IMG/VR virus record: IMGVR_UViG_3300014835_000071
Span: 27,338-91,337 of that record
Origin: a virus
DNA length: 64,000 bases
Reading direction: 5' to 3' (one strand)
The position numbers and the translations under genes are program-made. The stretch's first letter is position 1, and each line of letters opens with the position of its first letter. Below the pieces are notes generated by a model, which saw only the letters and a program-made list of their open reading frames with translations, searched no databases and had not been told where the DNA came from. Positions 27,135 to 47,209 of the stretch are shown here, piece after piece.

Positions 27135-29975
27135 TTAAAATTTAAATAATCCATCTACCGAAGTTTTTTCATGTGTACTAAGTAAATCCCAATTTAAAAC
27201 TCCTATTAAATTGGATACTTTTTTATCAATAATAACTGCTTCCATTGCTAAGTGGTCAAATGGTAAATCCTTAAACCACTGTGGTACTCGTAGTTCATCC
27301 ACTGGATATGCCACACTTAGAAAGCCTAATGGATTGGCTTTGAGTTTACAGACGATCACCTTAGCTCCATCAGCGATTCCCATTGAATAACGATCATCGA
27401 ACATTTTTTTCAATATATTCCAATTAATACTGGCTCTCACGTGACCTGGCATATTAGTCTTACCATTGTCGTATTCTTTATTCTGGTATTTTGTGATATT
27501 ATTGGCACGTTTAGGTGAACCCTTTTCCCAGCCGGGTCTAGCTTTAAATAATGTTCTAAATTCAGTGATATGGTTAAGTACATCCTGTTCGGAATTATCA
27601 CTTAATGTCAATGATAGCACTTCACTGAGAAAGTTTTGTACGAATTCAGGTGTATCACTACGTCGAAGATCTAACCCCATTGCTTTAATTTCACCTGGTT
27701 TCCCATCAATGTCTTTTCGCTTACCTTCTTTATCATAAACCAATACCGCATATCGTTTTTTAGTGATGAATAGTGATTTACTACCAACAATTTCCCGACC
27801 TGCTTTGATAAGATTTCCATTGGTAGCTGGGCAATGAAATGAGCGCACCATAAAATCAGTGAATGTAGTGTTAACTTGATCGCCTATTTGATCATATAAT
27901 GAAATGATAGATTCTTTAGTCCACATCACTGTCTTATCTTCAATGGCTGGTTTTAATGTCGTATATGCTGAGAAATAACAGCTGTCAGTGTCACCGTATA
28001 TGATAGATTCTCCGGTATGAGAATATTCACCGGTTATAATTTCGTTTACCTGTGATGCCATATGCTTACCGATTTGCTTACCGGTTAATGTGACAGATTG
28101 TCCAATTCGTTTGTCATAAAATCGACTACCTCTATTAAGTAATGCTCCGTATAATGAATTTAGTACGATTTTCTTAACATGTTGGCGTTTATCCCAATAT
28201 TCTTCCTGTATAGCATCACCACTTACTATCGCTGCTTTTTGTTTCTTTTGCATTTCCTTACGTTCAGCATACCATCGTTGTAACAATCCTGGTATAATTG
28301 CTTCTTTATCATATGAAAAAATGGTTCCGTTGGCACTTAGCATCCACGGTTGTCTTTTATCAAAAATAAGTTCGTAGATATCAGTGGCACGACCTGTGTC
28401 AGACCCACCTGCTTCCCAATCAATTGTGATATTAATCGAAGTGCTTCTGTCCATAACAGCGGTGTATTCCAAAGAGCCAAACAAATTTTCCCATGCCTCA
28501 GTAATGGTCTTTTTAGCTAATAATTCTTGTCGAATAAATGGTACAGTCATATCTTGACGTAATTGGCCAACTATAGTTTCTGGTCCCATATTTAACGCAC
28601 GAATTACCGATGGATATAGTGAATTTATATCTAATGAACCAACCCAATCATGTATACCTTTTTTTGGGTATGCCACATAAGCACCTGCTGCACCATCGTC
28701 AACTACCACTATGCTACGGTCAACTTTGATACGATTTGGTATTTGAAAACCTCTACTATGCGATTCGTTGATGATTGATTGATCAGTTACTGCTACAGCG
28801 CCCATTGTCGTTGGTAGCAAAACTGTACATTCATGTGCCAATACATTTGCAATATCCATGAATTTAAGTTTACGATCCAATTTTTCAAGCAACATGGTAT
28901 CTTGTCTATTATATTCAATAAATTTCTTAAAATCATTGTTGTATAATTGATCAAGTGTACCTTCGTATTCAGTTTTGTGATCACCTAATTCATATTCCGC
29001 TACCGCATCTAACCGGTATGAATGCCGTTCTTCGTAGGTATACTTGCGGTATAATTCAAGACTATCCAGATGAACTCTGCCTATTAAATCATAGGTAACT
29101 GCTGCCTTGCCATATCTTTCATATTCTCGTTTTTTTGGCAATTGATCCCATAGACAAAATCGTCTAGTATCATTTTTACTAAGTACCTTAGTCACACGAT
29201 TAACCGTGTATGGAATATCAAAGCCTTCACTATTCCACCCGCTAAGTACATCGGCGTCTTGGATTAAATCCAAAAATGTATCAAGCATATCACGTTCGGT
29301 AGTAAACAATAACGTATCTGGGAATTCGGCAACTAATGCGGTAGCTTCCTCCATTGATATGGTATTTGGTGGCACAGCCAGACAAATCAAGGAATCTAAC
29401 CATTGCAAATACACTGCGATAGCTGTAATTGGCATAAACGCATCATCTGGTGAAGCATAACCTGGACCAGGTTGAAGATATCTACTAGTGGTAACAGCAA
29501 CCCATCGTTTTTTAGTATCGTCATATACTTCATACTCATCTTTGTTAGTGAGTTGTCCTAGTTGAAATACAGTAATTTTCCGCGTAGACAATTTATCACG
29601 AATTTTAACCATTTGCTGAGAAGGTACGGCAAATGGTTGCATATCGGTCTCGATATCAAACCACGCAACATTTAATTTTGGAGATTCTAATCCAATATAG
29701 TTATCACTTAAGCATACATGTATTGGATTAATGTCAGATTCGTGCAATTTCCTATTACTATTAATGTGCAATTCTTTACGAAAATCACTGGTGCTTCGGC
29801 AAGTTATTTTGGTCAGTGGAATTCCGTAAATTGAGCGAAATTTTCCTTTTGGATCATCCACATAGAATGTTCGTTTAATTGGAAATTCATTATATTCACG
29901 AATTCCATCTTTATTCCGCTCAACTACCTTAATAACATCAGCTGCTGTATCTACCATTGCGTCAACGTATGACAT
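27135..29975 (-). CDS. gp43: Family B DNA polymerase (T4 gp43-like)
   Basis: 946 aa; ExoI FDIETD, ExoII GWNSEGFDIPY, ExoIII YNRQD, motif A SLDINSLYPS, motif B KIVLNSLYG, motif C YGDTDS, KKRY. Confidence 0.97.
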   Translation of the reverse strand: MSYVDAMVDTAADVIKVVERNKDGIREYNEFPIKRTFYVDDPKGKFRSIYGIPLTKITCRSTSDFRKELHINSNRKLHESDINPIHVCLSDNYIGLESPKLNVAWFDIETDMQPFAVPSQQMVKIRDKLSTRKITVFQLGQLTNKDEYEVYDDTKKRWVAVTTSRYLQPGPGYASPDDAFMPITAIAVYLQWLDSLICLAVPPNTISMEEATALVAEFPDTLLFTTERDMLDTFLDLIQDADVLSGWNSEGFDIPYTVNRVTKVLSKNDTRRFCLWDQLPKKREYERYGKAAVTYDLIGRVHLDSLELYRKYTYEERHSYRLDAVAEYELGDHKTEYEGTLDQLYNNDFKKFIEYNRQDTMLLEKLDRKLKFMDIANVLAHECTVLLPTTMGAVAVTDQSIINESHSRGFQIPNRIKVDRSIVVVDDGAAGAYVAYPKKGIHDWVGSLDINSLYPSVIRALNMGPETIVGQLRQDMTVPFIRQELLAKKTITEAWENLFGSLEYTAVMDRSTSINITIDWEAGGSDTGRATDIYELIFDKRQPWMLSANGTIFSYDKEAIIPGLLQRWYAERKEMQKKQKAAIVSGDAIQEEYWDKRQHVKKIVLNSLYGALLNRGSRFYDKRIGQSVTLTGKQIGKHMASQVNEIITGEYSHTGESIIYGDTDSCYFSAYTTLKPAIEDKTVMWTKESIISLYDQIGDQVNTTFTDFMVRSFHCPATNGNLIKAGREIVGSKSLFITKKRYAVLVYDKEGKRKDIDGKPGEIKAMGLDLRRSDTPEFVQNFLSEVLSLTLSDNSEQDVLNHITEFRTLFKARPGWEKGSPKRANNITKYQNKEYDNGKTNMPGHVRASINWNILKKMFDDRYSMGIADGAKVIVCKLKANPLGFLSVAYPVDELRVPQWFKDLPFDHLAMEAVIIDKKVSNLIGVLNWDLLSTHEKTSVDGLFKF

Positions 29976-29999
29976 TGTTAACTCTCCTACTCAAGTTTA

Positions 30000-45008: not shown

Positions 45009-45398
45009 TTAATACATTGGATTACTAAAATCAAATGTCTGTGTAGTCGAATTGTTCGATTGACCTAGATATGCATCACTGGGACATTCATCACTGACCA
45101 GCATGATAGATTTAGTTTCCACTCGACGAACCTCAATTGTATCACCAGTGTCTGGCTCAATTTTAATCCCTCTCGTCCATCTACCATGTTCAACTAATAT
45201 CCAATCACCAATTTTGACACTGGTTTGTGCTGTGCCAATTGCGTAAACCTTGGCCCATCTTGGTTTGATACCTTCACTTTTACCATCATCACTTTTAATG
45301 ACAATTCCACTAGCAGTAGTCTGCTCGGCAAAGTTCATATCAGTAACCAATACACTATCATAAATTGGTACTAATTTGTTACATTTAATTGCACTCAT
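45009..45398 (-). CDS. groES: GroES/Cpn10 co-chaperonin
   Basis: 129 aa; P..D.VLV, mobile loop TTASGIVI, V.A+G....VK+GD.+L; C-terminal extension. Confidence 0.85.
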   Translation of the reverse strand: MSAIKCNKLVPIYDSVLVTDMNFAEQTTASGIVIKSDDGKSEGIKPRWAKVYAIGTAQTSVKIGDWILVEHGRWTRGIKIEPDTGDTIEVRRVETKSIMLVSDECPSDAYLGQSNNSTTQTFDFSNPMY

Positions 45399-45727
45399 TT
45401 ATCCGCCACGATAGTTGGTGGCACTGGTACCTTCACTGGCACCTTGGGTATTTCAATAATTGCTGCTCTAATTTGTTCAGCAACTACTGGTGGTGTCATT
45501 GTGGCATTTGGTTGATTGGGTTCACGTATTTCCGCAGGAATATGACGTGTCGTTAATACTTGATCAACATTTTTAACAATTATCTTCCCACCTGGACCAA
45601 TTTCATCACCACGGGCATTAACCCGAACGTTACCCACTGCAATGACCATTTCATTTTGGTTCATTAATTTATTCATATCAACTTCTTTACCTTGCATAGA
45701 TCTATGTACTATTCGTTGTGCTGTCAT
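45395..45727 (-). CDS. Hypothetical protein
   Basis: 110 aa; Pro-rich tail; AGGA RBS. Confidence 0.75.
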   Translation of the reverse strand: MTAQRIVHRSMQGKEVDMNKLMNQNEMVIAVGNVRVNARGDEIGPGGKIIVKNVDQVLTTRHIPAEIREPNQPNATMTPPVVAEQIRAAIIEIPKVPVKVPVPPTIVADK

Positions 45728-45748: not shown

Positions 45749-46252
45749 TTATCTTAAAAATTCTCGCCAATCTAATGAATATTTGATGCTATCTATTCGA
45801 TGTACACCAATTAAATATAAGACAAAACTGGCTACACTAGATCCTCTACCAACACCCCATACTATATTATTCTCCAAACATGTATCAACAAAATATTTAA
45901 GCCATTTTAATAATGTACCTAATTTACGTTGTTCAAATTCGGAAAATTCATCAAGCACTCTAACTCGTTGTTTATCAGTTGTGCATTTATCCAAACAATA
46001 AGCAAGCATGTCTAATTCATAATAGGACACTGGCATAAACCATTGTGCTTGGTATCGTTGGTCAAAAGAATCTATATCCTCACATGTAAAAACTGGACTG
46101 TTAAACTCCATTTCAGTAATTTCTTGGAATTGAATTATAGTTGGACTTTGTGCCACCATTAATTCACTAATTTCTGATATATTCCCTTCATATAAGAATT
46201 TAAATATATCAGAATCGTCAAATATTGGATTTTTAAATTTATCTAAATGCAT
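45749..46252 (-). CDS. Stand-alone fragment homologous to part of DNA polymerase III alpha (DnaE)
   Basis: 167 aa; VWGVGRGSSVASFVLYLIGVHRIDSIKYSLDWREFLR* aligns with DnaE [34 protein letters not shown]. Confidence 0.75.
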   Translation of the reverse strand: MHLDKFKNPIFDDSDIFKFLYEGNISEISELMVAQSPTIIQFQEITEMEFNSPVFTCEDIDSFDQRYQAQWFMPVSYYELDMLAYCLDKCTTDKQRVRVLDEFSEFEQRKLGTLLKWLKYFVDTCLENNIVWGVGRGSSVASFVLYLIGVHRIDSIKYSLDWREFLR

Positions 46253-46262
46253 AAGTGATATA

Positions 46263-46493
46263 TTAGTTTACATTGATAAGTTTGTCAAATCCTTTTTCTT
46301 TATTATTCAACATCTTTTCCCATTCAATAGCACGACGTTCAGTCAACTCTGCCATATAAGTATCCAATGCTGTAGTTATCTGGTGTTGTAGTTCAAAATT
46401 TTGTGTCATGAAATACTTTTTGCCAAGTTCCGCTATTTTAGATTCAAGTTCAGCATCTTTAAACTTTCCCAAATCATATATCAACGGATGCAT
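46263..46493 (-). CDS. Hypothetical helical protein
   Basis: 76 aa; TAATG coupling. Confidence 0.75.
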   Translation of the reverse strand: MHPLIYDLGKFKDAELESKIAELGKKYFMTQNFELQHQITTALDTYMAELTERRAIEWEKMLNNKEKGFDKLINVN

Positions 46494-47209
46494 TAATATT
46501 CGCCCAGATACCTAATATAAACATGTGTACCATGATCACTGCTCCATGCTTCTATCACTTTATGTTGCCCATTCACCAGTAAATTAATCGGCTGACTGAA
46601 AGAATTTTCGTATCGTATAGTCCCGGCGTTCGCAGTCAATAATGATGGAGTTTGTGAAAAAGCTAGCCATTTGGCCTGATCTAATTCTAAGGTTGTTCGA
46701 CTGGTATGGGATGTTATACATTTATAAGTAACATATTTATAAATGACGACATCATTACCGGAGTAGCTGGTAGACGCAACCCACGGCACGGTCGTAGTAG
46801 TGATTGTGTTACTTAGCAAATGAACTCTAATTACTGCGTATTGTGACAAAGCTGCCCAATTGGTAAACGTCAATGAAGTATCAGTAGTTAATGTAAAAAC
46901 TTGAAATGGCCCATTACGTAAATCAATTTCGGCAGTAGAAGATACTGTTTGGGTATGAACTGTGCCGTACATGGTACTATACAGCCCATTACTTAATGTA
47001 CTACCGTGTAAATCATTGATGTGTGGCACATTAGCGGCCATATCACTATTCAATAATGATTTAGATTGTAATGTATCAATTTCAGATTTGGCAACTTCCA
47101 ATGCGATTTTTATAGCCGAAAAGTTATCACGAAATCCTTGGGTGTCATTGTCTATACCAGCCACTGGATAGGTGGCTTCGATTGATGCAAAATTTATATT
47201 ACTACTCAT
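46493..47209 (-). CDS. Virion structural protein with coiled-coil N-terminus and CBM5/12-like insert
   Basis: 238 aa; QGFRDNFSAIK...A..EI..LQ baseplate-type N-terminus; W...Y...Y.C..SHTS...W motif at 46667-46783. Confidence 0.65.
   Translation of the reverse strand: MSSNINFASIEATYPVAGIDNDTQGFRDNFSAIKIALEVAKSEIDTLQSKSLLNSDMAANVPHINDLHGSTLSNGLYSTMYGTVHTQTVSSTAEIDLRNGPFQVFTLTTDTSLTFTNWAALSQYAVIRVHLLSNTITTTTVPWVASTSYSGNDVVIYKYVTYKCITSHTSRTTLELDQAKWLAFSQTPSLLTANAGTIRYENSFSQPINLLVNGQHKVIEAWSSDHGTHVYIRYLGEY

Follow-up and report, generated by a model that had tools for sequence, protein, structure and literature searches.

A conserved jumbo-phage gene encodes the predicted N-terminal unit of a split, minimal C-family (Pol III alpha-like) polymerase

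The window analysed here is a 64,000-nucleotide stretch (positions 27,338 to 91,337) of the uncultured virus record IMGVR_UViG_3300014835_000071. On its minus strand, at 45749..46252, lies an intact open reading frame of 167 codons plus stop, with an ATG start and a TAA stop, referred to below as the N-unit, i.e. the N-terminal unit of a predicted split minimal C-family (Pol III alpha-like) polymerase. The frame is part of a tight array of genes on the same strand: 10 nt separate it from the stop of the upstream 76-aa gene, and a 110-aa gene with an AGGAAA ribosome-binding site (phrog_14844; 45395..45727, minus strand) starts 21 nt past it, immediately downstream. The gene order is as follows: a 238-aa gene, the 76-aa gene, the N-unit, the 110-aa gene, a GroES/T4 gp31-like co-chaperonin (45009-45398, minus strand; Cpn10 E 5e-7; phrog_931, 'head morphogenesis') and a gp44-type clamp loader. 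The clamp loader is of the RFC type, matches phrog_168 with an E-value of 7e-75 and is found 0.8 kb downstream of the N-unit. The family-B polymerase that a preliminary description of this DNA had ascribed to the phage is indeed present, as a 951-aa open frame with a PF00136 match at window positions ~27138-29990 (minus strand).

Some of these neighbours are constant companions of the N-unit. In 88 of 91 loci, the gene that directly follows the N-unit is a homolog of the 110-aa gene, also in the distant phages PA5oct, GAP32 and Phosso. Conservation of the 110-aa protein is confined to its first ~60 residues; it has no Pfam match, and an Atlas look-up returned phage hypothetical proteins only. 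It is possibly an accessory of the split polymerase, or simply a neighbour within a core block of synteny. PA5oct, GAP32 and Phosso also keep the order N-unit, 110-aa gene, GroES-like gene and gp44 clamp loader, sometimes with a few genes in between. Among environmental relatives, the positions of the 76-aa gene (46263-46493, minus strand) and the 238-aa gene (46493-47209, minus strand) are kept in 83 and 82 of the 91 loci, respectively; neither gene was detected beside the N-unit in PA5oct, GAP32 or Phosso. The 76-aa protein shows a sub-threshold match to Bac_RepA_C (E 0.002).

The N-unit itself can be divided into two parts. Residues 68-167 (45752..46051, minus strand) make up the first part of a polymerase palm, with its helices and GS loop, and are equivalent to residues 278-393 of E. 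coli Pol III alpha. Residues 1-67 (46052..46252, minus strand) form a phage-specific N-terminal domain at the place where cellular enzymes have their PHP domain. Within the palm part, the nucleotide-binding GS loop is read from the sequence as G135-R136-G137-S138-S139 (45836..45850, minus strand) and corresponds to E. coli R362-G363-S364. The N-terminal domain has no Pfam match and lies outside every structural match, and an Atlas look-up of the first 70 residues returned phage hypothetical proteins only (score 0.84); its conserved positions in an alignment of 38 family members are D15, Y21 and D64. No Pfam match to a PHP domain was obtained anywhere in the N-unit, and the structural matches begin at residue 68 (~E. 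coli 278).

The relationship to Pol III alpha is visible at the level of sequence profiles. PF07733 (DNA_pol3_alpha) matches residues 90-166 of the N-unit over profile positions 18-94 of 260, with an E-value of 4.3e-9 and 36.8 bits (gathering cut-off, 23.9 bits), and phrog_11127 matches with an E-value of 1.9e-37 up to its last profile position (171/171). Positions 96-168 of the 38-member family profile align with residues 320-392 of E. coli Pol III alpha, up to FERFL; the sequence-level E-value of this profile against the solved DnaE chains is modest (0.006). The C-terminal end of the N-unit reads ...LDWREFLR and falls at ~E. coli 392-393, and the three catalytic aspartates of the cellular enzyme (E. 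coli D401, D403 and D555) are absent from it. In the E. coli chain, the catalytic pair in D401-F-D403-V-D-F follows 9 residues past the equivalent of the N-unit end. The preliminary description had seen here a DnaE fragment with a GRGSS motif, a clean start and stop and no intein, ending just before the catalytic aspartates, and our data agree with it on each of these points. An intein would have no room here, and at the junction no N-unit residues extend beyond the polymerase alignment that could represent a split-intein fragment.

Structure prediction leads to the same assignment. The AlphaFold model of the N-unit, built with the family alignment, has a mean pLDDT of 86.7, and its residues 68-167 have the fold of the first part of a C-family palm (residue ranges are taken from VIA re-alignment). 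The best match is to M. tuberculosis DnaE1 305-413 (Z 10.9, rmsd 2.6 Å, 94 aligned residues), and further matches are to E. coli Pol III alpha 278-393 (Z 9-10), to PolC (9qrn, 9qrl and 3f2b) 823/826-964/965 (Z 7.2-10.4) and to Taq Pol III alpha 294-455 (Z 6.3-7.3). The 12 best structural rows are C-family polymerases throughout, with Z 6.3-10.9, and the next, unrelated row has a Z of 2.9. It should be noted that plain Foldseek E-values are weak both for this model (0.17) and for the model of the partner protein described below (1.3e-3), with C-family polymerases at the top ranks. The GS loop (residues 131-140) is unstructured in the stand-alone model and is the stretch of lowest confidence (pLDDT 68), as expected if the loop pairs with the sheet of a partner.

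A tblastn search for homologs of the N-unit gave matches in 119 GenBank phage records; these include the full-length DnaE genes of Bacillus and Clostridium phages, and the remainder are jumbo phages, e.g. PA5oct, GAP32, CBB, Rak2-like phages, Atu_ph07, Phosso and Xoo-sp13. In IMG/VR there are at least 101 more homologs, the nearest of which is at most 53% identical to the N-unit of the window, and megablast of the N-unit region against GenBank phages gave no match. N-unit homologs are 161-184 aa long, apart from one 123-aa entry with an uncertain start, and 91 of 91 end at the same point (78 exactly, and 13 with one extra residue). Across 38 diverse N-units, mean column identity is 53% and 19 positions are invariant, among them G133, G135, R136, G137, S138, S139 and S142, and the GS loop aligns with E. 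coli GPGRGSG.

We also looked for longer relatives in a collection of 5.8 billion proteins. Five were found; their extra length is N-terminal only, and they still end in ...(E/D)(F/Y)(L/F)(R/K), one of them with one more residue. No natural fusion of the N-unit to its putative partner came out of this search, which is weak evidence against a two-chain enzyme. Two of the longer relatives look like assembly chimeras: in P0004 and P0005, both on short ENA contigs (1.4-2.4 kb), the last ~70 residues of an N-unit follow a fragment of an M13-type peptidase or of a cation/proton antiporter. They are most likely products of misassembly or wrongly called genes and not genuine fusions.

The missing aspartates are found in a second protein family. 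Weak matches to PF17657, the Pol III finger model, in Phosso and GAP32 lead to partner proteins of ~190-216 aa, namely Phosso gene 437 (annotated "DnaE-like DNA polymerase III alpha") and GAP32_282, which belong to phrog_11778 and are referred to below as the C-unit. Ten C-units from cultured and uncultured phages have an invariant D-x-D-I-D at residues 6-10 (Phosso numbering) and share the motifs F-K-(V/I/M)-D-(F/L/I)-L-N, I-R-P-x-K and F-K-K-x-H-A-x-x-Y-A. Many IMG/VR C-units start with M-P-D-I-D-I-D-F, and most start within 1-4 residues of the DxD; D3, D5, D7, D68, R135, P136, K138 and H168 are invariant in 41 of them. In a colinear HMM alignment, D3/D5 of the C-unit correspond to E. coli D401/D403, D68 to D555 (VKFDFLG), R135-P136 to R639-P640, and K165/H168 to K758/H760 (FNKSHSAAYA), and the C-unit start also aligns with MPDIDIDF of Mtb DnaE1 (413-420). 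As with the N-unit, the sequence-level E-value of the profile against solved DnaE chains is modest (1.6e-4).

The predicted structure of a C-unit (that of contig G008; pLDDT 91.9, residues 1-190 aligned) again matches C-family polymerases, namely Taq 461-841 (Z 9.9), Mtb 419-854 (Z 9.7), PolC 970/971-1299 (Z 9.4) and E. coli 399/401-784 (Z 8.5). The 15 best structural rows belong to this family throughout, and the next row has a Z of 3.1. The C-unit is a much abbreviated version of the cellular enzyme. Only ~65 residues separate its DxD from the third aspartate, compared to 152-154 in E. coli, and therefore the thumb insertion is gone; from the third aspartate to the KSH motif there are ~100 residues instead of ~205, i.e. 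the fingers are ~105 residues shorter. The protein ends near E. coli 784 and is without the clamp-binding, OB and tau-binding regions.

In the relatives, the C-unit lies a few genes upstream of a primase and a gp41-type helicase. Its 3′ end is overlapped or abutted by a small gene (~110-130 aa) on the opposite strand, an arrangement that is conserved across distant jumbo phages; examples are L014:3909-4262 (GAP32_283), L100:4533-4931 (PA5oct EST35_0221), L013:3901-4266 (Phosso gene 438) and L101:1607-1984. One C-unit homolog, L134:2995-3219 on IMGVR_UViG_3300032311_000547, has a stop after 75 residues, beyond which the same frame continues; it is possibly a pseudogene, a sequencing error or a case of a recoded stop.

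The two units tile the polymerase core on four solved polymerases, with junctions at 393|399 (E. coli), 455|461 (Taq), 413|419 (Mtb) and 965|970 (PolC). The gap is ~5 residues, there is no intein on either side, and the break falls in the loop that joins the ERFL helix to the DxD strand. Furthermore, the units occur together. Both are present in all seven complete genomes checked, namely PA5oct, GAP32, Phosso, Slickus01, XacN1, Vibrio phage 2.275.O and the 364.6-kb IMG/VR contig G006. The N- and C-units are EST35_0288 and EST35_0220 in PA5oct, and GAP32_323 and GAP32_282 in GAP32. In tblastn tallies of GenBank phages by genus, the numbers of N- and C-units are equal for Escherichia (34/34), Pseudomonas (11/11), Salmonella (8/8), Erwinia (8/8), Xanthomonas (4/4) and Yersinia (4/4); for Klebsiella there are 10 N-units and 11 C-units, and the surplus C-unit may be that of the 85.7-kb phiKp_21. 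The complete 141.6-kb genome of Alishewanella phage Slickus01 (OQ508957.1) encodes both units, and the system is therefore not limited to 'jumbo' genomes of >200 kb.

Single-protein, PHROG-profile and hmmsearch --max searches detected no C-unit, either in the window or in the remainder of the 108.5-kb record, and six-frame searches of the record with PF07733 and PF17657 for a second half returned nothing. The complementary DnaE part, for which the preliminary description had proposed to search the rest of the genome, is thus absent from the sequence available. Likewise, no C-unit was found in the five largest contigs of N-unit relatives (91-208 kb, 26-58% complete). A weak PF07733 match in GAP32 at 56.6 kb was discarded as spurious, being in frame with a dCMP deaminase gene and having stop codons inside.

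The distance between the two genes has to be considered here. GAP32 and PA5oct have 34 and 44 kb between them, respectively, and Phosso has 224 kb; in G006, G007, G008 and G010, four large environmental contigs, the distance is 159-180 kb. The record at hand, at 108,530 bp, is 29% complete and reaches 73 kb on one side of the N-unit and 35 kb on the other. Since the spacing of 159-180 kb in relatives would put the partner off the fragment, its absence from the fragment is uninformative. Contigs G010 and G008 have N-units that rank with the nearest relatives of the window protein (E 4e-53 and 4e-49; best 1.6e-60), and both contigs carry a C-unit, which argues that the lineage of the window carries one as well. 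We predict that the C-unit of this phage lies outside the sequenced fragment, more than 100 kb from the N-unit.

In Pol-beta-like nucleotidyltransferases, as in the Taq Pol III ternary complex (3E0D), the GS loop and basic residues of the fingers hold the dNTP triphosphate, and three aspartates bind two Mg2+ ions. In the phage proteins, the R-G-S residues are on the N-unit and the Asp triad and finger motifs are on the C-unit, all of them invariant, and the folds of the two units are adjacent pieces of one domain. We therefore consider it probable (roughly 0.8) that the product of the ORF is the N-terminal subunit of a minimal C-family (Pol III alpha-type) nucleotidyltransferase that consists of two chains and occurs in T4-like 'group 2.2' jumbo phages. 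The N-unit would supply the helices and the R-G-S loop that grips the triphosphate of the incoming nucleotide, and the separate ~190-aa C-unit would bring the beta-sheet, the three aspartates that bind Mg and fingers of reduced length. The two chains would associate into one Pol-beta-like active site of ~290 core residues, which would add nucleotides to a primer; because there are no intein residues at either end, the assembly would be non-covalent. The reconstituted enzyme would be without PHP, thumb, clamp-binding and OB domains. The physical association of the units, their polymerase activity and their biological role are what we infer from these sequences and models. An enzyme that has neither a thumb nor clamp-binding domains may not work processively, and may not even copy a template.

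The last point bears on the first alternative, i.e. that the two units form one enzyme, but one that is another kind of nucleotidyltransferase on a Pol III core and not a replicative or repair DNA polymerase; untemplated tailing, primer-like synthesis and nucleotide-signal chemistry are examples. The missing thumb, the fingers shortened by ~105 residues, the absence of PHP, clamp-binding and OB domains, and the B-family polymerase that the phage already has are all compatible with such an activity. However, the RP and KSH motifs of the fingers, which go with dNTP binding in Pol III alpha, are invariant, and both genes have replication genes nearby (the clamp loader in the case of the N-unit, the primase and helicase in that of the C-unit), and we regard this alternative as unlikely. 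It is similarly doubtful that the two-chain mini Pol III represents a new kind of nucleotidyltransferase, made from the bare C-family core and having a phage-specific job other than that of a second DNA replicase. That job would be, for instance, specialised priming, the copying of modified DNA, or repair; the 110-aa protein might then be a third subunit, or the 67-residue domain might replace lost thumb or PHP functions.

A second alternative takes the N-unit alone as a non-catalytic decoy or inhibitor, which would imitate part of the host DnaE and interfere with the replisome of the host. The N-unit has no catalytic aspartate, its partner was not found in its own record and the phage has its own family-B polymerase, as a decoy would allow. 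We nevertheless consider this explanation quite improbable, on several grounds: the N-unit corresponds to an internal palm element and not to the known beta-, tau- or epsilon-binding regions of Pol III alpha; its R-G-S nucleotide-binding residues, which a decoy would not need, are invariant; its sequence hardly varies between phages whose hosts range from Pseudomonas, enterobacteria, Vibrio and rhizobia to many uncultured ones, and does not track the host DnaE; and it is paired with a C-unit in every complete genome checked. The preliminary description had offered three possibilities for the fragment: a mimic or inhibitor, a stand-alone nucleotide-binding module, and one part of a split Pol III. 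The first two fit poorly with the strict pairing of the units and the constancy of the sequence across very different hosts, whereas the third is well supported by a partner in relatives that bears the aspartates, accompanies the N-unit in 7/7 genomes and starts 5 residues past its end. Finally, although the ORF spans only ~100 residues of a 1160-residue enzyme, it is a real conserved gene and not a decaying remnant or a frameshift or assembly artefact of a full-length dnaE; these are excluded because homologs from independent assemblies end at the identical residue with no random truncation, the family is strongly conserved, the neighbouring genes are conserved and tightly packed, and neither the 64-kb window nor the whole 108,530-bp record contains a continuation of DnaE in any frame.

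The two-chain arrangement can be compared with known C-family polymerases. The N-unit has the fold of the first palm part and the R-G-S loop in common with bacterial DnaE and PolC (2HNH, 2HPI/3E0D, 5LEW and 3F2B), and differs from them in having no PHP domain, catalytic aspartates, thumb, fingers, clamp-binding or OB domains and in having an unrelated 67-residue N-terminal domain. In cyanobacteria (Synechocystis and Nostoc), DnaE is also split, into DnaE-n and DnaE-c, whose halves carry intein fragments and are joined by protein trans-splicing into a full-length enzyme. The phage system resembles it in that a C-family polymerase comes from two distant genes. Unlike the cyanobacterial protein, it is split at a different site, the N-unit ends flush at EFLR, the C-unit starts with M-P-D-I-D-I-D-F, and there is no intein.

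A split minimal Pol III alpha has already been described, from computational analysis, in group 2.2 jumbo phages by Iyer, Anantharaman, Krishnan, Burroughs and Aravind (2021, Viruses 13:63; PMC7824862), who reached the same reading independently and suggested that the second polymerase serves repair or the synthesis of one strand. The protein studied here is of the same family (the phrog_11127 match reaches the last position, with E 1.9e-37) and occurs in the same context, with a family-B polymerase and an RFC-like clamp loader. Nothing essential differs: the window comes from an uncultured relative whose predicted C-unit is off the fragment. In addition, PF07733 is the one gene that marks the largest marine jumbo-phage cluster of Weinheimer and Aylward (2022; PMC9123017). 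Both phrog_11127 and phrog_11778 carry the label "DNA polymerase", and annotations of the two halves are present in recent GenBank records. A full-text literature search found no experimental study of the split polymerase, and the main text of the PA5oct omics paper does not mention the N-unit or C-unit genes. Our analysis adds three points: the split is located exactly, at E. coli 393|399; the 91 homologs share one stop position; and the 110-aa gene is a constant companion.

For the window itself, the finding mainly means a correct annotation and the prediction of a distant partner gene. For the family, if the two-chain enzyme is active, it would be by far the smallest C-family polymerase, with ~360 residues in two chains compared to ~1160 in one, and a natural minimal model of the active site of the bacterial replicase. 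It would also place a bacterial-type polymerase core beside a B-family replicase of the archaeo-eukaryotic type in one and the same virus, an idea published in 2021.
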